A program made the translations under genes and the position numbers. A stretch of 63,995 nt of DNA, filler included, from Perkinsus chesapeaki ATCC PRA-425 (lineage: Eukaryota; Protista; Perkinsozoa), in NCBI GenBank assembly GCA_013115145.1. It is 18 parts of 18 records of this genome, joined end to end, with 100 filler letters (N's around TTAATTAATTAA, not from the genome) between each part and the next. Parts side by side here need not be neighbours in the genome. Positions count along the whole stretch, not along the records: positions 6,390 to 10,546 come from JAAPAO010001308.1; 17 more parts are not named here. One strand, 5' to 3'. The first letter of the stretch is position 1, and each line of letters opens with the position of its first letter. Under the pieces are notes generated by a model. It made no database searches. It was not told the origin of the DNA and saw only the letters and a program-made list of their open reading frames with translations. This document shows positions 6,170 through 58,594 of this stretch, in pieces.

Positions 6170-6390
6170 ATTAAACAGGCAGAGTAGTAGAGATAATCGA
6201 GTGATCATCAGATACAATGAGCAACGGCGTGACGCCCTGCTTATTGGAGACAGCACGCATGTCATTGCGCGGAGGTCACCGATAACAATNNNNNNNNNNN
6301 NNNNNNNNNNNNNNNNNNNNNNNNNNNNNNNNNTTAATTAATTAANNNNNNNNNNNNNNNNNNNNNNNNNNNNNNNNNNNNNNNNNNNNC

Positions 6391-6471
6391 TGGAGTGGGA
6401 AAGGCTATGGTAAAGGTGGTGCTCGAGGTAAAGGAGGGGGCAAGAACGAGGCCCCTCAGAAGGATAACTAG
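6391..6471 (+). CDS. C-terminal tail of ORF1 (gag-like) of the YR retrotransposon
   Basis: Reads WSGKGYGKGGARGKGGGKNEAPQKDN* from the contig start, directly upstream of pol. Confidence 0.5.
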   Translation, partial: WSGKGYGKGGARGKGGGKNEAPQKDN

Positions 6472-6691
6472 CTAGAATAGATGTCTAAGTTTCTAATGGT
6501 TGTGAGTAGTACTAGTGGTTATCTATAGGAGAGGTGATATAGGGCGTCGATCTGAGGCGTTCATCACGGTTAGAGTTAACCGTGTATTAGTAAGTGTTAT
6601 TTGATTTAACTTAGCTAAATGTGTTGCGTTTATAAATTATGTGTCGAGGTATTGTCATGTGAGTAGTTTTCATTGTTTTTATTTGGCGGGT

Positions 6692-8965
6692 ATGCCGCAT
6701 AAGCGGAGTCGTGACTGTAAAGCCAGTGCTCGTAGGGCTTATCGTAACAAGAAGAAGTTGAAACGATCCGAGGGATCAATTAACGAGGGTCTGTCTCGTG
6801 AGACCTTCGAAAGCGGGCCCTGGCGGAGGTACTGGGATTTGGCTCTAAAGTGTTGGAGGGAAGAGAAAGAAAAAGTGAAAGCGGCTTATATCGATGGCTC
6901 AGGAGTACCTGAAGTGACCTCACCATTGTCGAATTCTTGCGATATTGACGGTTGGAGAGCACAGCCATTGGTTAAGTGCATTTTAGAGACTGAAGTAGTG
7001 AAGGAGGCAATTGAAAAATTGAAATTGGGAACTAGCCCTCAGGATATTGAAAATATCTTTCATAAGGATGGTAGTGGCATTATATCAAAGATTACGACGG
7101 TATGCGAGAGGTTTTTCAATGTTAATAGAAACAAAAATGATGAGGCTAAGTTCAATTCGAAGTTCGAATTAACGGATCATTGCTGACCAGAGGTTCGAAT
7201 TTCGAACCTCTGGTCAGCAATGATCCGTTATTTCGGTGTCCGTGATGAGGAATTCATTCAGCAGGGAGCTAGGTATGGTTTTCCGGTCGGGATTCTACAA
7301 CCTCTTCCATCCAGTGGGGGTATACATCCTTTGGCAGATGAGGAACAGATTGTGTCTTATGTAGAAGACGGTCCTGAGTGGTCAGGGAATTACCCTTCCG
7401 AGGTGGAAGGATCAGAGGAGATACTTCATAAGTTAATAGAGGGAGAGATAAGTAGAGGGTGGATGGAGATAGTAGACCGGTTTGAATCCGGAGCAAAGCC
7501 GGCTAAGCTGGCTTTGATTCCTAAGAAGAATTTTGATGAAGGGGTTAATGATTGGGCCGATCAGCCTGAGGATGTGTTGAGGAAGTCCTTCAGGGTAATA
7601 GAGGACTATAGAAGGAATGCCTGTAATAATAAGGTTTCCATGAAGGAAACCAACGCGCTGCCGAGCTATCAGAGTTTAGTTCGTTTGTTGGAGCATATAG
7701 TGCAGTTGGAGGCGAAAACTGGCAGTAGTTATATCATCTTCGAAAGCGATATTCAATCGGCGTATAGAACGGTGCCTGTGATTGCGGCAGAGAGAGGATT
7801 TCTTGTTGCGGAGGTGAATTCGGTTAAAGTCAGGCACACCCGATTGCCTATGGGGCTGCGGTCTGGTGCTTACGTTTTCTCGCGGATTTTCTCAACTTTG
7901 CATCGAGTATTAAGGAAAATAATGGACCCGTTGGGGACTGGCGGGTTAAGTTATCTCGATGATAATTGCTGGTTTATCCCAAAATGTATAAAAGAAGAAG
8001 CTATTTGTATTTTGCTTCTTGTGCCAGGGGCATGTGGGGTAGATTACGCCTGGGAGAAAATACATGTCGATGGAAATAATACCTTTGGGGGGTTCACCAT
8101 AACAAGAATGAATCTCGGAGGGTTTGTGATTAGGGTACCGCCGCGTAAGGAGGAGAAAGTGGTGCAGCAGATAACGTCCATTTTGGAGAGCGGGATGGTG
8201 AAGGCCGAGACGCTACAGAGTCTCATTGGTCGTCTCTTGTTTTATACGCAGATGTGTCCTATTTATAGAGAGGGACTATCTCATTTATATGGTCTATCTA
8301 CAGTTATGAATAAAAAGGGCTTGTACAAGGTCAAATGTTCCGAGAGGACTGCTGACTGTTTGACGAGATGGCTGCAAGTAGTATCATCTAACTTCGAGAG
8401 GGTGATAAAGGCTGTGGAGTGTGGGGGCCGTTCCGGGCGTCAAGAGGATTTGGAAGGTTTGATCCTAGCTGACGCCTCCACTATCGCCTTAGGGTGTATC
8501 GTTATTCGTGTGACTGGTACGAGTGAGCCGGGTGCGTATAGTAGACTGCTAATTGAGGAATTGAAAGAGATCGAAGAGACCAATGTACATGCAAGAACGA
8601 GCAGTAATATGGTATCGTTGGAACTTACTGCAACACTTATGGGTGTATTGCTAGCAAAGAAGATGGGCATGAATCCCTCAAAAATGTTAGTCCTATCGGA
8701 TTCGAAGTCGGGTATCGGCGCTCTGAAGAAAGGTTTTTCAGCGAAGATTGGCCCAGCTAGACTGGTTGCTGTGATTACACAAATAATGAGCGATGGAATA
8801 CAGGTGTCAGATTTGCCCAATGACAGGGCATATCACATTAAAGGGTTGTTAAATGTCGATGCTGATAAGATCTCTCGTGATGTGGGCTATGCACCACCTG
8901 GGCTGAAGAGAATGTATGTTTCTGTCGCAGAAGTGAAAGAAGTGTTAAATGGAGGGAAGTTCTAA
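6692..8965 (+). pseudogene. pol: pol (reverse transcriptase + RNase H) interrupted by one in-frame TGA inside a 45-bp palindromic insertion
   Basis: RT motifs DIQSAYRTVPV, LPMGLRSG, YLDD. RNase H motifs ADAS, LELTA, LSDS, HIKGLLNVDADKISR. ORFs 6641-7186 and 7220-8965 share a frame and are separated only by TGA 7184-7186. Confidence 0.85.
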
Positions 8966-9131
8966 GCTAGATATCTCACTTAGCGGTAGTTGGCAACCAC
9001 TTATCACAGATAATAGTCACTCAGTTATGAATGGAGTGTTGCGTTTGTAAAGGGAATAAATTGGTGCTCGGCTACTTCTGGAGATTTAGGTTTATTTGAA
9101 ATCTTTTCAATATCTTGTTTCACCGCTGCAA

Positions 9132-10235
9132 ATGGCTAAAGGCGGAAAAGGTAGAAAGGGTGGGAAAGGAGGAAAAGGAGGGAAAGAAGGAAAAGGAAAG
9201 AAGGGGAGAAATAAAGGCAATAACCGCGAGCAGCAGATAAAAAACTTCATGAGCGCACAACCACCCGAAGGGTCTGAAGAGGAGTCCCAATTAAACCAAC
9301 GTTTGAGGGAGAGTTCCATTAGAGCGTCGACAATGCAACAATATACGACGGCGGAGAAGTTGTTTCTTGAGGTCAGCACGTATCCCATCAATGCCGATAA
9401 AGTTCAGCTGTTTATATGGGCGTTACTATCACTAGAACCGAAGCTAACTAGTAATACTATCTCCCAATATGTGACGAGTATCAAGACATTATCTGAAATT
9501 AAGGGTTACCCGCCTCTGAGCACTAGAGGCGAACAACTAGTGAAGAGGGCTCTAGCGGGGGCGCGTAAAACTAGGGAATCGGTGGGTGTCGAGTCGAAGG
9601 AGGCGCCTGTAATCACGGATAGGGCGGTAAGGGCGATCGCGGGGATCGCGACCACCATGGGATCTATGAGTGACCAGATAAAAGTACTAACATTGATGAG
9701 CATTGGGATTGTCAGTCGGTTAGACGAAACTTGGAATTTACGAGGAAAAGATGTTCACGTTGTGAAGACAGGGAGCCATTTAAGGGTAATAATCGATATA
9801 TGGAACCCTAAGACCGTGGACGGATTGACACAGAAGACAGTCGACTGTACTGAAAGAATAAAAGGGGAGGGGTGTAGAGCACTGTGGTGCGTAGCACATG
9901 AAATGCAAGAAAGGAAAGAGAACTTGGCGTCGGATGAGATGAGGTTTTTTCCGGGTATATGTAAAACTACCTATGCTCGAGAGTTGAAGAAGCTTATGAA
10001 GAAACAGTATCCAGCCGAATACGAACTGTTTGAAATGGACAAGGTTAGTGGACATAGTCTGAGGAGGACGGGAACAACGCGTTTGGCGCAGCAAAACGTT
10101 CCCCACCAGGAAATTATGGCGAGTGGCTCTTGGCGTAGTGATTGTTGGAGAATCTATGCTACTCGAGCTATAGCAGAAAGGACTACGAAACACTCTGGGA
10201 TCATTTTTGGGCAACCGACCTCGAGCGGGCCATAG
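9132..10235 (+). CDS. Tyrosine recombinase of the retrotransposon
   Basis: Catalytic set R (SRLDE), K (WNPKT), HxxR (GHSLRR), W (GSW), Y (WRIY). SAM-like N-terminal helix RASTMQQY; Gly/Lys-rich N-terminus. Confidence 0.88.
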   Translation: MAKGGKGRKGGKGGKGGKEGKGKKGRNKGNNREQQIKNFMSAQPPEGSEEESQLNQRLRESSIRASTMQQYTTAEKLFLEVSTYPINADKVQLFIWALLSLEPKLTSNTISQYVTSIKTLSEIKGYPPLSTRGEQLVKRALAGARKTRESVGVESKEAPVITDRAVRAIAGIATTMGSMSDQIKVLTLMSIGIVSRLDETWNLRGKDVHVVKTGSHLRVIIDIWNPKTVDGLTQKTVDCTERIKGEGCRALWCVAHEMQERKENLASDEMRFFPGICKTTYARELKKLMKKQYPAEYELFEMDKVSGHSLRRTGTTRLAQQNVPHQEIMASGSWRSDCWRIYATRAIAERTTKHSGIIFGQPTSSGP

Positions 10236-11346
10236 TCGCATTCAGATGGCGATGAATGAGTGACTACAACACTTGAGATATATAGCGATTCCTTAAGGCT
10301 AAAATAATTACCTTGCGTTGTATAGTTGGATGTCGTGTGAATAGAAAGTGGAGTTCGTTTAGTGGACTAATGGAAAGTTGATCTCGGGTAACTCGAGTCG
10401 GATTTGTGGTATTTTCGTAAGAATCTAGGAATTTATGGTAAAACAGTTTGGTGTATGTTGGGTATTTGGGATGGGGAGGCGCGATATAGGCTTTCAGATA
10501 TGAGATGTTAGAAGCATACTCAATTGCTATCACTAAGGTAAAGGTANNNNNNNNNNNNNNNNNNNNNNNNNNNNNNNNNNNNNNNNNNNNTTAATTAATT
10601 AANNNNNNNNNNNNNNNNNNNNNNNNNNNNNNNNNNNNNNNNNNNNGTGAAGAGTACTTTGAGAAGTTCTTTGCTAATCTTGTTAACCAGATTGATAATA
10701 GCTTCCAAAAGCTTGTTGATGAGGCCAACTAACTGACTACTACCAAGTGAATGTTTAGGGTGAAGGCCAGTAATTGTTATAATGATATATAGATAATAAT
10801 TGTTATTGCTTATAGTATAACAAGTATTATCTATCAACACTGCTGATGTATTTGATGATGTAATCAATACTGGCTGATACTAATGATGATGCTAGAGGTG
10901 ATTTTTTCCTAGTGTTTCACCCCACCACCACTACTACACCGTAAAGGTTGTTGTTGTTATCATTATTCGATTATTGGCCTTATTCACAAGTCTACCCCTC
11001 AACAACGACATCATCAAGAGCAGCTTGTCACTTTTTTCTTCCTATACAACAGCATAAGGAGTATTGATTATTATACTATCAATCATTATTGATTGATATT
11101 ACATAATAATCATTTACTACTACTACAGTTATCTGGGTGATGATTCCTTTAAGTGATAGAGATGGTATATGGTTATAATGACAAGTGTGTGTTACAAGGG
11201 ATTTTATGAATTCCTATGCCTACTACTGCTAATAACAATGTTATTACTCATTATTACCGTTAATGCTATCTCGAGTACATTTTCTTCAATCATAGAATAA
11301 TGCGAGTTTGAGTTTTAGTAATGTAACAAGACATCAGTATGGCGAC

Positions 11347-11764: not shown

Positions 11765-13476
11765 GTGATATAGCGACTAGATGTTCTAAGTGTGGCAATC
11801 CCAACCACTCTTCTGATCTGTGCGAGGTCCCCACTAAGTCCTTGAACTGTCAAAGATGTCTAAAGTCAGGACATCTAGCTTATGTGTGCCCGGCTTCTAA
11901 GCCTGTGGACCCCGACTTGATCAACCAGAAATCTAAGGGCAAGACTGCTAAGTCTAATAAGCAGAAGTTCAAGGCAGGTAATCGACACCGGCCTGGTAAA
12001 CCCTCTACTACCCGGCCTGGTCCATCGACACCTTCTACTAATGCTCAAGTGGTCGACGAGTCCAACAAGGCCAATACTATTGGATCATCTTCAGAGTCTG
12101 AAGTTCAGACCCTAACTCTACTATATGGGTCTCTCCCCTTAGTACTGCTGACCTCAACTCCAACTCTAATGCACTCCATACTGATAATGGTGTTCATTCT
12201 TCTAACACGTCGTCTAGATCCTCTAAGATCTCTATGGTCGTTGGCGATCTATCTGTTTGCGGTGTTGTGCGCCCTGTCCTCTATGACACTGGTGCTGACG
12301 TCTCTCTAATTGCCATTGGGACTCTCCGCAAGATCACCAATAAGCGTCTATGCTTTAATGACCCTTCTATTCAAGGACGTGTTAATGTTGCTAATGGTTC
12401 GAGTCTTTCTATCTTAGGGAAGGTCGAGCTAGAGGTTGGCTATGGCAATACGTTTACTAAGGATGCCTTTCTATTGGCTTCTGATGATTTGAGTACTCCT
12501 GTTATTGTTGGATGCTCTACTATGGCCAAGTTGCGTACCACTATATCTATATCGCCCGATGGGATCTATGTTAGACTAGGAGATCGCCCCCCTCAAGTCT
12601 CTACGGTCGAAGGCCCTGAGCCTCGTCTATCTCTGCGCGATATGGATTGGCTACGTAAGGTCGCTGTTATGCACGTGAGTCACGTTGTGTCTCTATCATC
12701 GGTATCTACTTCCAGACCTAGGCCATCGATATCTATCAAGCCTAGTAGCCTAGATTTCTCCTATGGCGTGGAAGGTGGGAGCTATGTGCTCTATGATACC
12801 TTCAATGATGATATGGCTATCCACCCTGATCTTCCGGTGTCTATAGCTATTAGCTCTACTACGTGCGTTAATACTGTTACTGACTCTGATACTATCTCTA
12901 CTTGTGATTTACTTCCACCTTGGCAAGCTATCTCTAGAGAGTGGGTCAGTGATAAGTCGGCTCCCCTAGGTCGCGTGTCTGTCGAAGTTCCGTGGCGGTC
13001 TCTAGAACGTCCTGCTTTCAACTTCCACTATGCGGCTAAACGTGGCCTGGCTTCTATAGCTCGCCTCGATTCTAAGCAGCAGTCAATGTTCGAGGACGCC
13101 CTCTCTCAACTGGTTGGCAAGGGCTTCTGCTCTATCGTCTGTGATCTGAGATCAACCGGTCTCAAGAAGCCCACCCGAGCTATGTGTCAACAAGCCTGGT
13201 CTACTCTTGTTAAGGGGACGGCCTCTGAAGGCTCTAGTGTCCCTCTAGCGGAGCACTATACTCCTTCCCATTTAGTGTACCGACCTTCTCATCCTACTAC
13301 GCCTTGTCGAATTGTTTTCGATTTTCGAGATCTCAATCGATTTTCTAATCGAGGTGGTTTTCCCCAAAACCATCTAGCTGGTTGTCTCCTAGCTATTAGA
13401 TCTTACCAGCACTTTATTGCTGGTGATCTCTCTAAGGCTTTCTGTAGGATGCAGTCTAATACTAGGGATGTTCCCT
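11765..13476 (+). mobile_element. LTR retrotransposon gag-pol fragment, BEL/Pao-like, with a frameshift near 12100
   Basis: Two knuckles (CSKCGNPNHSSDLC, CQRCLKSGHLAYVC) and aspartic protease LYDTGA. RT start HYTPSHLVYRPSHPTTPCRIVFD...GDLSKAF resembles the BEL/Pao YLPHHxV..TTKxRIVFD..ADIEKAF pattern. Confidence 0.75.
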
Positions 13477-13707: not shown

Positions 13708-16220
13708 TTGTTTGTTTGTTTGTTAGTAGTTTATGGTCCAGCGCCAGGTTAGGCTTCGCCAGACCTTATCATAGCCTTATATATACCATATCATATTAAA
13801 TTCAAATATTAACTCAGAAGCAAACGGTAGAGGGTATCCATTCTTCCTTCTCTTACCGTGAATTGACCCATTGTACCATCACCATCGACCCACGAGGGTC
13901 TGTCCCTTTTTGCACACCGCAGGGCTCTATGAGCCGGATCATCCTCTTCCACTTGGCACAACATACAAATTGGTGATATTGATCTCCCAATTCGGTACAT
14001 ATATAGACGGAAGGATCTAGAATGTCCCACCACCAGGGAAGCCATTCTTGGTAGTCTATTACATGCTCTCTGCAGAATATCCCTCTGTCTTTCCGACCGC
14101 ACCATATGGTATAAATCATATCTTAGTAGTTGCCTGTCATCAGCTAGACGCTTCCTCCGACGCTCCTTGCAGAGTCTAATCGTGCAGGATTTAGAGGCAG
14201 CTATTGATAGTTTAATGCCAGAATACCGTCCTTGATTTGCCAATGCATCAGCTCTGTCATTAAAGGGGATGCTGTTGGTATGGCTGGGTATCCAGTATAG
14301 GAATAAGTTTTCAGTATCATTGATTATATTGACAATTCTTCGCAGCCTATCATTAGTATGTCCTCGAGTCAAAGCCATGAGAAGGGACTTGGCGTCCACA
14401 AAGACTCGGCATGGCATATTAGTATTATATTGGCCATTCTTATAGTGCTCCAGTGCATATTGTAAGGCTACCTGCTCAGCTTGGTAAATAGTACAGTAGT
14501 GCGGTAGATTTCCACAAAAACTGTAGACCTCTACACCATTTTCCACCACTGTATAACCACATCCCGCTCGTTGATCTGGAGGTTCGCTATTTGCCACAGA
14601 GCCGTCGGTATAGATATTTATACCACTACCGCTCACCAGGCGCCATTCTTTGATGGCGTCTTCTGCTGTACCAGCAATGTGTATTTTGGTGACCACGTTC
14701 TCGGATGGTGGCGGACCGCAATAGCCTGTCTCAACTTCGTAATCCTCAGGGAATCTCTCTTTCATGATATCCACCCATTTACGTCTCATGGCCTTTGAAA
14801 AGCCAGTCACGTTAGGGAACACCTCGCCTTCCCTTGACCAGCTAGGAGCCTTATGCATCTCAATAACCAAATACCGATCCACCAGGCTGTCGGACAGGGG
14901 AAGTTCATTAGTTAGGGCCTCTATGAATAAGTTCGGCGAGTCTTTGGTCAGTCGATATGCCATCCTAAGCATCCTGCGATATCCAGCATCAATAAGCGAG
15001 CAAGTGGCTTTATTGGCTAGTGACCGTCCCCAAGCTTCAATAGCATAGCTCAGGGATGTGACCCACACAGTTTTGGCGAGAGTAAGAACCGCTTGCGGGG
15101 GTAGTCCAAAGGACTTACCCGCAAATCTCTGTATTCTCATGGTGGTATTGTGGCAACGGACAAGCTTCTCCTTAATGTGTTGAGTGAAGCTAAGAGCCTT
15201 CGAAATGAGGACACCCAATATCCTTATATGTTGATCACCATACAACGCACAATGGAAGCCACATAATATCTTGGTCTTTTCAATTGATAACTGGAAGTTG
15301 TAACCAGCCAGAAGGGAGCCAATTTCTTGGAGTAGCCTTCCCACCAAGCTTGCAATACCATCCTCCGTTGCATCTTTAGAAAAGGTGAGTACCAGATAGA
15401 AGTCATCTGCATAAGCATACCATTCGATATTATACTGCCGACCACTCATCTTTTGGTTCAAATCCATTATCATAACTGTAGTATAGGCAGCAAACAAAAT
15501 CGGTGAGAGCACACAGCCCTGACCGAGACCCTCATTATCGTCGCCCTGTCTGGATATGTTGACTCCATAAAATTCATTGTGGTACCACTTGGGAGTTAGC
15601 CACGCCTTAACCCATTCGATATCACCATCGTCTGCACCCAGGCTGCGGATCGCATCAAGAACTTTGGTATGAGTTACAGATCCAAAGGCGTTGCTGAAGT
15701 CCAGGCTTACTATAGACCACTTCTTCTTACATACCGTTTGTCGTCGTTGTAGATGACCAAGGAGGTCTCTAATCAGTAGGGCTGAGGATTTACCCGGAAG
15801 ATACGCATATTGAGAGCCTTCCTTTAAAATATTACACACCACTTTTGATAATCTTCTGGAAATAAGAGCCTCCATAAGTTTACCCAGTATACAGCTCAAA
15901 GTAATCGGTCGGACCCCCTTCAGCGTACCATACCCAGTAGGCTTGGGAAGATAAACAATTTGAGAGTTCCTCCAATGGGCCGGCATTGCTGCCGTATTAT
16001 ATGATAGTTGACATAATCTGCCCAATTCTGACAACAACCAGTCTGGTGCTTGTGCTAAGTGAGCCCATCGAATACCACAGGAGCCTGGGGAAGATGTGCC
16101 TTTCCTTTTAGAGACTTCTTCTTTGATCACCGTCACAGGAAATTCGCACCATCTTTCAGCCAAGTGCAGCACCTCCTGATTAAGCCGTGTCGGTAGTTGA
16201 TGCGGCTCGGTGGGGTATGG
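13708..16220 (-). mobile_element. 5'-truncated non-LTR retrotransposon (RT-RNaseH-CCHC; I/Tad/R1/Ingi-type architecture) with (AAAC)n tail
   Basis: Tail at 13708-13723. Candidate 12-bp TSD AGTTGTGGTGGT at 13696-13707 and 16221-16232. No endonuclease domain present. Confidence 0.85.
13809..16220 (-). CDS. Reverse transcriptase + RNase H + C-terminal zinc finger, open in frame with upstream poly-Thr
   Basis: RT motifs RPITL, LDFSNAF, GLGQGCVLSP, YADD. RNase H motifs IYTDGS, QAEQVA, FVDAKS, WIPSH, NDRADALA. Zinc finger CMLC...H...C. Confidence 0.9.
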   Translation of the reverse strand, partial: PYPTEPHQLPTRLNQEVLHLAERWCEFPVTVIKEEVSKRKGTSSPGSCGIRWAHLAQAPDWLLSELGRLCQLSYNTAAMPAHWRNSQIVYLPKPTGYGTLKGVRPITLSCILGKLMEALISRRLSKVVCNILKEGSQYAYLPGKSSALLIRDLLGHLQRRQTVCKKKWSIVSLDFSNAFGSVTHTKVLDAIRSLGADDGDIEWVKAWLTPKWYHNEFYGVNISRQGDDNEGLGQGCVLSPILFAAYTTVMIMDLNQKMSGRQYNIEWYAYADDFYLVLTFSKDATEDGIASLVGRLLQEIGSLLAGYNFQLSIEKTKILCGFHCALYGDQHIRILGVLISKALSFTQHIKEKLVRCHNTTMRIQRFAGKSFGLPPQAVLTLAKTVWVTSLSYAIEAWGRSLANKATCSLIDAGYRRMLRMAYRLTKDSPNLFIEALTNELPLSDSLVDRYLVIEMHKAPSWSREGEVFPNVTGFSKAMRRKWVDIMKERFPEDYEVETGYCGPPPSENVVTKIHIAGTAEDAIKEWRLVSGSGINIYTDGSVANSEPPDQRAGCGYTVVENGVEVYSFCGNLPHYCTIYQAEQVALQYALEHYKNGQYNTNMPCRVFVDAKSLLMALTRGHTNDRLRRIVNIINDTENLFLYWIPSHTNSIPFNDRADALANQGRYSGIKLSIAASKSCTIRLCKERRRKRLADDRQLLRYDLYHMVRSERQRDILQRACNRLPRMASLVVGHSRSFRLYMYRIGRSISPICMLCQVEEDDPAHRALRCAKRDRPSWVDGDGTMGQFTVREGRMDTLYRLLLS

Positions 16221-16396
16221 AGTTGTGGTGGTGGTCGTTGTTGTTGTAGTTGTGGTCGTGGTAGTTGTGGTGGTGGTCGTTGTTGTAGTTGTTGTAGTTG
16301 TGGTGGTCGTAGTTGTTGTAGTGGTAGTTGTGGTGGTGGTTGTAGTTGTAGTTGTGGTGGTCGTAGTTGTTGTAGTTGTGGTCGTGGTAGTTGTAG
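16221..16396 (-). repeat. (ACN)n Thr-codon array (58 codons), 5' flank of the LINE
   Basis: Uninterrupted ACN triplets in the same frame as the RT ORF. Confidence 0.9.
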
Positions 16397-16569: not shown

Positions 16570-19295
16570 GAGGTTCCGGGGGGTTGACACTCAAGGCCGG
16601 GTCCGCGGTTAACCTACGGGTCCGCGGTTGATTTTCCCGGGCTTTCCTTTATTGCTAGGTTTGCGCTGGTGTTTCAAACAGTGGGACTTGTGCGTCGCCT
16701 TCTCGAGGAGAGAGGGGGCGTGCGTCCTCTGAGCCCTGCCCTCCTCTCCTTGTTGCGATTTCTTCTTTTGTTTGTTACCGGGTGACCCACTACCTTATAC
16801 CCGGCTCTTTACCGGGGGGTCCGCGGTTGCCCCTTCCAGGCCCTTTTCCGCTCGGCAAACGCGACAAATACAATAGTTATGGTGTTAACACATCATCATG
16901 CTTTTGTTTATACTTCATTGATCTTCTGTTTTTTTCTTTTTCCTCCTCGAATTCTCGTGGGCTAACGTCTTCCGCCGGAATCCTCAAACCACATTTAATA
17001 CGTCCTCGCCTGTTGATTTTGTGAATAATCCACCAGAGCTTAAGGTCAAATAAACAGCTTCCCACCCGAGAGAACGAGTTAAAGCTACGCTGCATAATGG
17101 AATGAAAACATTCCACCCTCGACGTTCCTCTATTAGCACGATATACTGGGAATTGAATTGAGGATCCCCTATATCCAATGGTATTCACTTGGGACATGCA
17201 TGAGCCCAAATCGGAAACACAGTTCCGATCTATGTGAGTAAGCTGACACTTGTACGTTGAAAAAAAATCTTCCCCTAAGAGCGGCTGGTACCGACTTCCA
17301 ATCGGCGGTGATGAAAGCTGTGAGGTGCTGGGCTCACTTTCTCTCTGGCCCTTCTCCTTCTCCCATTCTTCGAGAGCCATTAGATCCGATTGATAGTATG
17401 CTTGGATCACCCTGTCCACTCTCGACCTGAGCTCGGTTCTCTCTGGGACATACCGGCGTATATGTTTTAATCTATCAGCCTTAGGGACTGCGCCCTGTAT
17501 TCCCAAAGAAACGCGGGCGCGTTCCAGGGCTTGGGCGTCACCAACATCTTGGGCCAGAAAGGCCCTCCCCAAGTCTTTGGATAGCCTACCTGATAGACTG
17601 TGGCTTTGGTTGGATGCTCGCAGGAGACGTGTTATGATATGAAATACATCCAGTCGTACCGCAGTAGCATCAGGTAAATGATTAGCCCAAGCAGACTCGC
17701 CGGATTCCGAGCAACAATTGCAATCGACATAGAATACTCGTGGTGGTGATATACCACCCTTATCATAACGACGAAATACTTCGCTGACAAGTGGTGCAGC
17801 ATAACGCACTGATGTGCTTGGTACTAATCCGCACGATAGCACTGCTCCGAAATCGGATATTATAGTGCATGTCTGCCCGGAAACGTGGGTCGCAGCTACT
17901 TTTCGAGCTACTTTCCTTTGACAATCGATCCCAAGTGAGCCGCCTTCGTTTCCGACAATCCCAGCTAGTTCCCGAGCCAGATACTTCTTTTCTAGTAAAA
18001 GATCTCGGAGCATCATTGCCAATAAGAAATCATAGCTCGGAAGCCATACATTGTCTGGTGGTGCCGGTGCCTCCTCTGGTTTACCTCAAAGCGGATTGGT
18101 TACTTACACACTGAGGATATGAAATCTATTACCTTTGATGAAAGGGTTCCTCATGTCGCTATCCCACTTTTCCACGAACCTTCTCCGCCGAAGTTCGTAT
18201 TCCCGATTTAACGATGCTCTAACATTGCCAACAACTTGACTCAAATTCCCTCCACCCATAAGAGCTCGCCGGGCATGATGTACAACTTCGTAATCCAGTC
18301 CTTTCCCACCACAAACAAACGGGATCATCATCTGGACTCTCAGAGGTAGCGTAATTATGTAGCTTTGATCCCATTTGTAGAATGTGCGTCCACAAGAAGA
18401 GCATACCACACGTGTTGTCTGGGCAACGTAAACCTTATTGAAGTTATAGATTATCTTCTCGTTGGACAACTTGCTAGTGTGCATTAGATTGGACGAATCA
18501 CAGCTGACACAGCGACCGCCTTCTGGGTTCCATAAGAATAAATCATTGCCAAATATAGTCTCAACACAGGGGAGCGGGCGGGCTAGTTCATCAAGCCATT
18601 GGTTTTGACGTATCCACTTGAAGGTGTTGAATGGTGGGGCATTGGCGAGAGACTTGTATGGCTGAGCCCTTGAAGTCGGTCTAGTTCGGTTGGCTAGGTC
18701 ATGAGTTTGTACTCCTACATCTAGAGTCTCTCGCCTGTGGTCGATGACTGACTCAGAACTTATGTTATCGATGCAACCGCTGCCTTTGGCTTCTCTCTCA
18801 TTGATACCATCTTCGATAACTGCCGTGGTTTCTCCATCAACACCAGCCTCAGTTACCAGCGAGGTTACCAGCGAGGCTGGTAGCATAGTACTCTGTTCGG
18901 AGGGATGTGACTTCTCGTCCGATTCAGCAGACTTGAAAAACTGAGCGAACTTCGCTATATTCCTCTCCTTCAGTCTTTCTTCAATTCTCTTCTTCTCTTT
19001 GACCACTTCCTCTGGCAGTTTGCCACTCCGCCTCAACTTGGGCCAAACGCCCGTTTTCTCATACGTAGTAAGGGCATTTCGGTAGATCGGGTCAGCTAAG
19101 GGTCTTTCAATTTTACGGTGGGATTTCGATTTCATTTAGAAATATGAACTACAGCTATGCATATTTATCATCCGTCGCTATACCTGGATACGCTACGCGC
19201 GCGCAGGCGAGCGACGTGGCGCGCTGGCGCGCGCCACTTTCGCTCTTTCGATTTTTTTCTTTTTCCCCCCTTGTGGCAAATTTTTCCCCCCGCCC
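16570..19295 (-). mobile_element. Complete Dada-superfamily DNA transposon inserted in the A-box of a tRNA-Ile gene
   Basis: Flanked by the direct repeat TAGCTCAG (16562-16569, 19296-19303) and by the two tRNA halves. Encodes a DDE/DxxH transposase. Confidence 0.87.
16877..19135 (-). CDS. Dada-type DDE transposase, two exons (19135-18133, 18084-16877), 736 aa
   Basis: A 48-nt GT-AG intron (18085-18132) joins the two ORFs in frame. Motifs: CxxC...CxxC N-domain, GIDCQRK (D), YVDCNCC (D), RLDVFH (DxxH), GTSRVECFH (E). Confidence 0.82.
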
Positions 19296-19611: not shown

Positions 19612-19684
19612 GCGGCTTTGGCGCAGTAGGTAGCGCGTAGGTCTCATAATCCTAAGGTCGCGAGTTCGATCCTCGCAGGCCGCA
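19612..19684 (+). tRNA. trnM-CAT: tRNA-Met(CAT), elongator type
   Basis: Full cloverleaf GCGGCTT...AGGCCGC-A, anticodon loop CTCATAA, TTCGATC T-loop. Confidence 0.93.
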
Positions 19685-24418: not shown

Positions 24419-25555
24419 TTGTCACCATATATTGTTGTATATTTTCCGAAGTCTATGTTGTGTTGTTACGCATATGACGAAGTTCACGCAGGTTTTCAGT
24501 TCAGCTTTATCTCTGTCATGCCGAGTTTAGAGCAGTGCCGGGCTGTCCCTGGCGGAGTGGGCCCCATCCGGTGGGAATCTCCCACTTGGAAGTGTAACCG
24601 CCATTTGTTACTGAGGATTGAAAAGGACGGACGATTGGCTGAAGTTCCGCTTTTTGACTGACTTGTCTGGAGCGGCTCCACTGGAGCCTTTCTTTGTGGC
24701 GCAGAATCTGCGCAACACGCATGCCCCTGCAAGCATGCCATGCACATCGACTAAGGAGATTGAATTTTTCACTGTACAGCATCGTCAGTAGCCGGAGAAG
24801 TTTGAAAAGTGTAAACCGCCAAAGGGGTGGTTCACGATGCTCAAGGGTCCTAGTCGGCGTGTATCACACGCATATAAGTTGCTGCCGTGCAACGTGCGAC
24901 AGCGAGGCCTCTGGTCATGAAACTTTTATCGACTATTATCTCAGCCAAAAATACAAAAACCGTGAAACATCGTGAAATGTAATTACATTCTTAGTAAAGT
25001 ATATATACTTACATAATATATTTGGAATATTTCGGCCTCCTCGTGATATCGAAATTATAATACTTAATATTCGTATTTAGCAACATACGGAATTATAATG
25101 GGAATTCAGCCAAGGCGCAATAGAGTCTATTGAATAGACGCTTTCGCAACTTGCGAATCGCAAGTTGCTCAACCTCATGTCACTGTCTCCTCAGGACTCA
25201 AATCCATTGCACACTGTTATTAACAGTTGGACTACGCCGAATCCGACAAGTTAAAAATTTAAACTTTAAATACGCGGTTAAAATTTTTAACCGCGTTAAA
25301 GGTAACTAAAGCTTAACCATTCCCATAGCAACAGGGAATTCTCAAACAAGCAGTGCGTGTCACGCACCTAAAATGCTGTGAAGTATCGGGGGTAACCGGA
25401 AGAGAACTGTAAAAAGGCTAAGTCGCCAAAAAAGTTGGGGTTCTTGCTAAGTTGCAAAGTCGGGGACCCCGACTCGGGGTGCTTCTCGATGTTGAAGAGT
25501 TCCAGTCGGCGTCTGATCCCAAAAAGAATCCAACGACGGTAATCAAAGAAATAAC

Positions 25556-55757: not shown

Positions 55758-57222
55758 TTACCTCGTCGGTAATACCGTCCACATGACGCCAGAGTAACTT
55801 CGAAGGGCTACAGTGGGTCGATGTCGATAGGGAGCCACTAAATTCCTTCCTTTCGGAAAAAGGCTACCCAAGTAGGCAAATTTATCTACTTCCTCGACTT
55901 CAGAGTCATGAACCTTCAAACGTAGATTGGAATCACCCAATCCCTCAGACAAAATCAAACATTTCGTCTTAGGTAAGGAAAGTTCCATTCCAAACCTAGC
56001 CAAAGATGCCGAGAGCCTATCTAAGTTCCGTTGAAGAGCTAAATCATCATCAGCCAGTAAAACGATGTCGTCTGCGAACAGGAGGCACGAGAGGTTTGCG
56101 GACTCAACACTATCCTTGCTTTCACAAAGAATGCTCAAACCAACCTCCAAATTGGCATCTCTTAGTACCATTTCCATGAAAATGATGAACAAGAGAGGAG
56201 CTACACGGCACCCTCGTCGAGTTCCCATCTCAGTAGGAAAGTTCAGAAATCCTGCTTTTACTTGAGCTACAGTGTTTCGGTGAAGCGATTCAACAGCTGA
56301 AATCAGCTTTTCATCGCAACCAGCCAACCTGAGGGCACGCCAGATGGCAGTACGAGGTACCTTGTCGAAGGCTGCTTTCAAACCCAGGAAGACAGCGGAG
56401 AGCCTGCCCCCATTAAAGTTGCAAGCTTCCTGGCATCGTCGAAGTACATCTACTGCATCTATGGTCCTTTTTGCCGACAAAAAGCCATACTGCTTTTCAC
56501 CAAAAAAACTCTCTGCCAGAGGTTTTAACCTATGCCCCAGTACACCCGCATAAACTTTGCCGATATGATCAAGCAGGTTTATACCGCCATAGTTTCCAGC
56601 ATCTTTCCTATCTCTTTTTTTATAGAAAGGGACTATAATGGAATGCACAAGGGCAGCCGGAATACTCGTTGGATTATTCGACCACTGCTGACATAGTTGG
56701 TGTAAAATCCCAAAAGTATGCTCACCACCTGCTTTTAGGGCAGATGTGAGCACTCCATTCGCACCTGGCGCTTTGCCATTGTCTATAGAGTTGAGAGATT
56801 CCTTCACCTCAGTCAAGTAGATGTCATCCCCTCCTTCACGCTCTAAGAAAAGGTTAGCTGGATCAAGAGGTGGGAGAGCACATTCCTTCAAAGCAAAAAG
56901 TTGCTTGAAGTGGTCTGCAAACTCCCACGGGGAGAGGGAATCATGTTGTTTGCGGTTCAGCGTGAAGCCCAGTCCTGGTTTCATTTCCCCTGATGAGTCT
57001 TTCAACGTCCCCGACAGCATGTTGAGCTTCCGCGTTCTCTATTTGAGCACACTTCAGCTCTATGAAATCAGCTTTGGCTTTTTTTCACTGCCACCACCAC
57101 TTTGCCGCGAGCTTCACGAAAAAGATCAAGAGCTTCCGGCGTCTTACTGCATAAGAACGCCTTCCACTTTGACCTCTTGCTGCTCAGCGCGGCTACAACA
57201 TGAGGTGCAGAGAGCCAGGGTT
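55758..57222 (-). pseudogene. Degenerate RTE-like LINE reverse transcriptase
   Basis: KAPGANG, YGGINLL, QYGF, FLGLKAAFD (Asp replaced by Gly), GTRRGC..PLLF, LFADD. Frameshift in the upstream linker at an A-run near 57080. Confidence 0.85.
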
Positions 57223-57645: not shown

Positions 57646-58594
57646 CTAAAACACGATGTTACTAACACTCACATTAACAATCCCATCAGCTCCAATAGTG
57701 ATAACGCTGCCCCCATCCTTGGTAACGTGAATGTCGCTGATAGCAGCTCCTTTGGCATGAAGACCTTCAAGACGATGTAGCGGACGACGGGTACTCGCAC
57801 GGGGATCCCATACGCACACTAGGCTGTCTTGTCCACCGGTAATGAGCAACCTGAAGACCCGGAGCAGACCCCCCCCGAGCGATGCGCACAAGAGAAGTAT
57901 CTTCACTTGTTTTCTCCAAGTGACGCCAATGCTGTAACATGACCTTTTGAATGACCTCGCGAACACGCGGCCTAATCAGGGATGCTACAGGAAGTGCGGG
58001 AGTATCATGTCTACTTCAGTGCCCCCCACGATGTCCCAGATACGGACTGTCGAATCCCGCCCACCGGAGACTATCCCATAATTTGGACAAATAATGAAGT
58101 CCAGAACCTGACGTCAATTCGGATGGAGACATGTGCCCATGACATAAAACAGGGAGACTGGTCGTGACTCGCCAGCATTCGAACAAAAAGTTACAAGTCT
58201 GGACAGAGGTATTGATATAGAAGAAGTGACATAGAGATATAATTACATTCACTGTAATGTGACTAAATAATAATGCTTCACTGTGAAGCATTATTATGAT
58301 ATGATGAGAATGATATATTGAAGAATACTAATGCTTAAGAAATATAAGCAAGTTGTAATGAAACGAAAATAGGGCAGGCTAATGTATTGGAAATCATTCA
58401 TACCAGGAAAATTTTCGGGTCCGAACTTTACAATACTCAATTCTCGTAGTCTCATGAAAGCGCATACTGACCGCTCCTGCATGCCCTCGGAGGACGGCGG
58501 AATTCGCAAAATTGTGACCGGCACACGGTCGCCAAATGTGTAGGGTCCGGTCGTAACTCGAGCTCACCAAGGCGGATCTGACAGAGAATTGCAA
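57646..58594 (-). CDS. WD40-repeat protein (possibly SNRNP40-like), multi-exon
   Basis: LVSSSYDRTLHIW...LRGHAGAV, LITGGQDSLVCVWD, VITIGADGIV. Confidence 0.65.

Follow-up and report, generated by a model that had tools for sequence, protein, structure and literature searches.

We have found that the pol gene of a retrotransposon from Perkinsus chesapeaki ATCC PRA-425 carries a 45-nt insertion (7162-7206) which is most likely the repair scar of an excised cut-and-paste transposon, probably of the hAT type, with ATTCGAAC as its target duplication; we put the probability of this reading at roughly 0.85. The whole stretch of DNA that was analysed, called here the window, is 63,995 nt long and is made of 18 short contigs and the spacers between them, and the scar lies on a contig of 4,157 bp (6390-10546).

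Results

The host retrotransposon

The contig carries the following coding features:

6692-7186, plus strand: 5' part of the pol frame, from the ATG to a premature TGA; 53% identity over 285 columns to P0003 of Perkinsus olseni
7187-8965, plus strand: 3' part of pol, with a reverse transcriptase (Pfam RVT_1; YLDD) and an RNase H-like C-terminus, and no more stops
9132-10235, plus strand: tyrosine recombinase frame of the same element, unbroken (Pfam Phage_integrase; HxxR..W..Y motifs identified by eye)

The Pfam matches to RVT_1 (E 1.1e-4) and to Phage_integrase (E 1.4e-3) are both under the curated cut-offs, and the RNase H motifs of pol were identified by eye. Because a reverse transcriptase-bearing pol and a separate tyrosine recombinase frame are found on one contig, the element is assigned by its sequence to the YR (DIRS-order) retrotransposons. 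No Pfam match to a methyltransferase domain was found after the RNase H, pol stopping soon past the RNase H-like motifs, and this points to an Ngaro/Viper type and not to a DIRS1-like element, Ngaro and Viper being described without methyltransferase in the part of PMC3266345 cited here. The order of a pol with reverse transcriptase and then a separate recombinase frame is shared with the DIRS-order elements of Ngaro/Viper kind in that same part of PMC3266345; in contrast to the elements described there, gag and terminal repeats are off the contig in our case, so that the superfamily placement is tentative. The contig starts 300 nt upstream of pol and no long repeats were found inside it. The public P. 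chesapeaki protein P0001 is 100% identical to the pol frame of this contig, and full-length pol relatives (P0004 and P0006) were recovered in the HMMER protein search described below.

We have also observed a near-repeat of 16 nt (6621-6636 and 9036-9051, 15/16 matching), whose copies lie 71 and 96 nt upstream of the start codons of pol and of the recombinase, respectively; it is possibly a common expression or trans-splicing signal.

Anatomy of the double palindrome

Two palindromes that share one base are found within the 5' part of pol:

7154-7170: left palindrome, 8-bp arms 7154-7161/7163-7170, centre G7162, the complement of the last base of S
7170-7230: right palindrome, perfect 30-bp arms 7170-7199/7201-7230, centre T7200, the complement of the first base of S
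7170: T common to both palindromes (arm overlap of 1), probable 1-nt microhomology at the repair joint
7155-7161, plus strand: left copy of S, the putative 8-bp target word, minus its last base (palindrome geometry, exact decomposition)
7201-7207, plus strand: right copy of S minus its first base (palindrome geometry, exact decomposition)
7162-7206, plus strand: 45-nt insertion, equal to the 15 codons missing in relatives (decomposition and protein alignments)
7184-7186, plus strand: in-frame TGA, mirroring the serine codon TCA at 7214-7216

When S is taken as ATTCGAAC and D as the 23 nt that follow, 7155-7230 decomposes exactly into S[1-7] + rc(S) + rc(D) + rc(S) + S[2-8] + D, a net gain of 45 nt, and S is recovered identically from the left and from the right sides. 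The right palindrome is the longest of the window, save a TA run at the window start, and the region around it has a strong predicted fold (-65.3 kcal/mol, z -9.4). The core of S, TTCGAA, is itself a self-complementary 6-bp palindrome, so that part of the match at 7154-7230 comes more easily, and the register of the insertion slides across it from 7156-7200 to 7162-7206. Among all the 45-nt removals with a direct repeat of at least 3 nt at their bounds (starts 7141-7190), only the seven TTCGAA registers were found, and their product is identical. From the ATG at 6692 to the stop at 8965 the TGA is the single internal stop, and removal of the 45 nt leaves an open frame of 742 codons.

The original prediction had described this site from the sequence, and its description held in full. 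The palindrome scan returned the 30-bp arms centred on 7200 and the 8-bp arms centred on 7162, the exact decomposition bore out an 8-bp word S with complementary centre bases, frame arithmetic agreed with a net +45 bp that keeps the frame and brings in the TGA, and the uninterrupted pol of 742 codons expected on collapse to one S was obtained by removing the 45 nt.

Protein relatives and direction of change

Word-index protein searches returned only P0001 and P0002, and neither of them spans the site. A HMMER search of 1.84 billion representative proteins gave 343 matches at E up to 0.001, of which we aligned the closest that span the site, nine distinct proteins in seven clusters that include P. 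olseni and P. chesapeaki. Exactly the 15 inserted residues are missing in all nine. The 15-residue gap is present in 5/5 relatives in one multiple alignment and in 7/7 in another, and P0003 of P. olseni has a single gap, of 15 residues, precisely at the insertion. In a blind pairwise check, both anchors were aligned in 21 of 155 proteins; their spacing was the expected 31 (46 minus 15) in eight of these and ranged from 26 to 65 in the other 13. One of the 13, P0004, has the 15-residue gap in the multiple alignment, and the remaining 12 are distant relatives, at or below about 30% identity. The spacing of P0127 (23% identity) is 46, the same as that of the window, but its letters are unlike the inserted peptide. 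These comparisons indicate that the 15 residues were inserted in this pol copy specifically, as polarised by the outgroups; the base-level placement of the junction comes from the DNA repeat and is beyond the reach of proteins. As the nine relatives lack the 15 residues, a family carrying the palindrome, which the original prediction had named as the result that would speak against it, was not observed at the protein level.

Reality of the sequence in sequencing runs

We compared 6390-9100 with 4 of 7 listed runs, which come from 2 samples and 2 studies (X4 and X1 are the same sample). One Logan contig covers 6747-9100 with zero differences in each of the four, the palindrome is carried in all of them with a mean word depth of 80-162, and no joint skips it. 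Because both samples may be the source of the window, this agreement shows that two data sets gave the same assembly, and is not confirmation by an unrelated isolate. No second close copy (at least 80% likeness) across the site was found in the four runs, where contigs show presence and not absence, and neither the occupied allele nor a DNA-level empty site was found in the same contigs, in which a rare allele could be missed. Runs X6 and X7 have next to none of the words of 6390-9100, and no RNA run is among the listed runs with words of this DNA.

In the stretch 6390-6776 the contig word depth is about twice that of the pol part, and past 6776 a branch into other sequence is present in the four runs examined; depth and branch show that a second copy or allele has only this 5' part in common. 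Run X5 also contains a diverged relative, which joins 6844 to 8649.

Scars of the same class across the window

We scanned 62,121 bases for the pattern S[1-7]+rc(S)+S[2-8], which adds 14 nt when S has 8 bases, with word lengths from 3 to 13 and without a low-complexity filter. For 8-base words we found 15 exact short scars (at 219, 3053, 12089, 20150, 25118, 25143, 25459, 25568, 30776, 47006, 47650, 52944, 53057, 53951, and 55071), clustered at 25.1-25.6 kb and 52.9-55.1 kb, and none for lengths 5-7 and 9-13, lengths 3-4 being background. No length-8 scar appeared in any of 20 Markov simulations. Allowing one mismatch added 20 more positions for length 8 as against 2 for length 7. Furthermore, 75 one-base-centred palindromes with arms of at least 7 were observed versus about 3 in Markov simulations, and this excess is not due to chance. 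Two scars of the window are described in full:

12089-12110, plus strand: short +14-nt scar of exact geometry in an LTR-retroelement, splitting the zinc-knuckle (gag) frame from the protease frame
1087-1132: second long scar, on another contig, with S = TGTCCATA, arms of 22 and 7, and one untemplated A; +38 nt

When the 14 nt at 12089 are removed, a zinc-knuckle frame of 180 codons extends to 565 codons, into the protease frame. Removal of the other 14 short scars gives no frame of more than 108 codons; 8/15 short scars gain fewer than 6 codons, as expected outside genes, and are thus silent on direction. The scar at 1087-1132, found in a wider scan, also has an 8-base word and is the mirror image of that at 7154-7230. 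The short side of both long scars consists of precisely one rc(S), which hints at a rule from two cases, and the joint is the one-base overlap T7170 (a single base, and hence weak) in one and one untemplated base in the other. The words of 17 scars have a weak bias towards nTnnnnAn (15/34 positions, p=0.027), and S itself fits. With respect to the common +14-nt scars, that at 7154-7230 has the same 8-bp geometry but is long-armed and is situated within a coding frame for which there are outgroup proteins.

Two lone one-base-centred palindromes (58267-58297 and 25272-25296, with 15- and 12-bp arms, respectively) have no matching partner, and are possibly scars minus one side.

Other elements in the window

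No Pfam match to the hAT family was found among the 79 frames of the 64-kb window. A scan for elements flanked by an 8- or 9-bp target duplication returned none with convincing terminal repeats: its 9 matches have just 7/10 bases matching and were taken as chance. The window does contain another transposase:

16880-19135: DDE transposase, Dada-like (DUF6729, CxC4, DxxH), in two frame pieces, 16880-18085 and 18107-19135

Its neighbours in the atlas are DUF6729 (0.95) and a cluster named MULE (0.92), and the only longer relative is a DUF6729 protein from a fish. It lies within a tRNA-Ile gene and has a copy of TAGCTCAG on both sides (16562 and 19296). An insertion in a tRNA-Ile gene is described for Dada-tIA_PMar of Perkinsus marinus in the cited part of PMC3706591. 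As this position and the flanking copies are those of a Dada element, we consider this transposase to be site-specific for tRNA-Ile genes like Dada-tIA_PMar, and we rejected it as the maker of the scars.

A tRNA-Met lies downstream of this insertion, at 19612. Two more reverse-transcriptase frames with strong RVT_1 matches are found on the minus strand, at 13812-16394 (with RNase H) and at 55761-57038.

Discussion

The original prediction that a DNA transposon had inserted into this retroelement and excised is supported here both by the outgroup polarity and by the flank-hairpin geometry of the footprint. As neither the occupied allele nor its transposase was found in the runs and window frames examined, we infer the passage of the transposon from the scar, and the hAT label likewise for want of the transposase. 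Insertion would duplicate S, and excision would then nick one base into each flank and seal both flanks as hairpins. A nick one base into the flank followed by a hairpin gives a palindrome centred on the complement of the base touching the element. The first nick of Hermes has a one-base offset, and we used this to work out the strands. A host nuclease would open both hairpins on the 3' side, at a distance of about 31 nt from the tip in the right one, and such opening of each flank hairpin would leave G as the left and T as the right centre base, as observed. The tails would finally join at the one-base overlap T7170 and be filled in. In this genome the tails would usually pair over the whole 8-base word, rc(S) with S, giving the common +14-nt scar, while end-to-end joining at one base would give the +45-nt product as a rarer long form. 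According to this, other copies of the retroelement would have the unscarred reading TTCAATTCGAACCTCTGG. On this reading, the stop codon arose by accident with the mirror copy, and the scar is without function.

Footprints of this kind have been described for Ac/Ds, a hAT system, in plants, Saccharomyces cerevisiae, and Candida albicans, consisting of deletions and of palindromic insertions whose centre is the complement of the element-adjacent base; both arise when hairpins are formed and opened and the ends are joined, in most cases at microhomologies (PMC5873905, in the part cited here, as throughout). The P-nucleotide palindromes, the centre-base rule, the microhomology at the joint, and the 8-bp duplication are all common to that system and to ours (PMC5873905). 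However, the arm of 30 nt exceeds the maxima stated there (20 nt for budding yeast, 3 for Candida); here each side retains the target word in inverted form and in full, and the element itself is not seen; and one +14-nt product dominates in place of the mixed short footprints of the Ac/Ds hosts (PMC5873905). Other hAT elements behave similarly in the portions of the papers considered. Eight-bp duplications and flank hairpins are hAT features (PMC4763223), TcBuster leaves the same type of footprint as Ac/Ds (PMC3499496), and Hermes prefers nTnnnnAn targets (PMC10368747). With Hermes, TcBuster, and Kat1 (PMC10368747; PMC3499496; PMC4763223) our case shares putative flank hairpins, an 8-bp duplication, and a word S that fits nTnnnnAn, but no enzyme of this kind was found among the window frames. 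In fact, the site at 7154-7230 has the 8-bp word on both sides, the centre-base rule, the microhomology at the joint, and, at the protein level, the empty site of the relatives, as a hAT footprint should.

The same scar could have been produced by the same hairpin route with a non-hAT transposon that duplicates 8 bp, such as a MULE, Merlin, or Zisupton/KDZ element. We regard this as unlikely, although it is a split inside the preferred explanation that takes about one in four of its weight. The lack of a hAT enzyme among the 79 window frames is in its favour, as are two published systems, in the parts of the papers cited here: the MULE Muta1 forms flank hairpin intermediates (PMC5499845), and Merlin has duplications of 8-9 bp and intact frames in P. 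marinus (PMC8101967). However, Muta1 differs in that its excision in yeast is mostly precise (>90%; PMC5499845), and the duplications of Merlin are of 8 or 9 bp whereas the scars have 8 only, with no P. marinus termini found in the cited part of PMC8101967. MULE and Merlin elements are possible candidates, but they fit the scars less well. The one DDE transposase of the window, Dada-like and located in a tRNA-Ile gene, is unable to account for scars whose words are arbitrary.

Template switching during replication, or snap-back synthesis at a DNA break, yields inverted copies of adjacent sequence. It could have acted here without a transposon, none being visible at the site, and with the aid of TTCGAA, the 6-bp palindrome at the core of S. 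We consider this improbable, because three switches would be required, two of them with the one-base-centre geometry of the 15 other sites, where the words are unrelated and mostly not self-complementary, and because nothing in such a route fixes the word at 8 bases. There is also very little to recommend a functional stop and hairpin signal for readthrough or regulation of pol. Its frame is kept by the insertion, both frames are otherwise intact, and the fold is strong, but any perfect palindrome folds strongly and the nine close relatives lack the insertion; moreover, the TGA mirrors a serine codon and lies inside the 5' arm instead of having the stem 3' of it, so that a ribosome at the stop would presumably have opened the stem already. 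Fold-back chimeras give perfect palindromes, and every run with the sequence is a possible source of the window. Even so, an assembly or library artefact is hardly credible when separate contig assembly spans the site without differences in all four runs (2 samples, 2 studies), at a mean word depth of 80-162 and with no skipping joint. Finally, the public gene model P0001 places the palindrome in an intron: it runs from about codon 127 directly into the sequence starting at nt 8027 and so bypasses the stop, treating about 7073-8026 as intron and dropping the reverse transcriptase domain. That an intron exists there is highly improbable, since the skipped stretch contains this domain and is coding in P0003, P0004, P0006, and P0153; the intron is most likely an error of the gene model that routes around the stop.

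The excision of a transposon thus remains the preferred explanation, and the flank-hairpin mechanism behind it is established, of which the present example is a clean case. We have found no paper on excision scars in Perkinsus, and no study of hairpin opening or end joining in its lineage, in a literature coverage that leaves out most subscription papers and the supplements. NHEJ is mentioned in general terms only in the cited part of the Perkinsus repair paper PMC8062965.

What is new in this case is an arm of 30 nt together with a direction fixed by outgroups inside a coding frame. The scar at 7154-7230 is a natural, outgroup-polarised flank-hairpin footprint whose arm is longer than the yeast maximum given in the cited part of PMC5873905, and the 8-bp scars of Perkinsus are true insertions that disrupt coding frames. 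The pol that was knocked out is the only close copy of the retroelement seen in the runs examined, and the scar accounts for the wrong public gene model P0001. A further suggestion, to which we give limited credence, is that the long scars expose how hairpin breaks are repaired in Perkinsus: the hairpins would be opened far from the tip (here at least 31 nt), pairing over the full word would give the fixed +14 nt, and in the long form the short side would be cut back during the same pairing and then slip to the end of the opposite, untrimmed tail. Repair of this sort would be dominated by microhomology, in contrast to plants and yeasts with their short and mixed footprints, and would have acted at thousands of sites in the genome, perhaps after excision by a transposon family with a chemistry that has not been described. 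The rare long scars are informative about how hairpins are opened and ends joined in the Perkinsus lineage.
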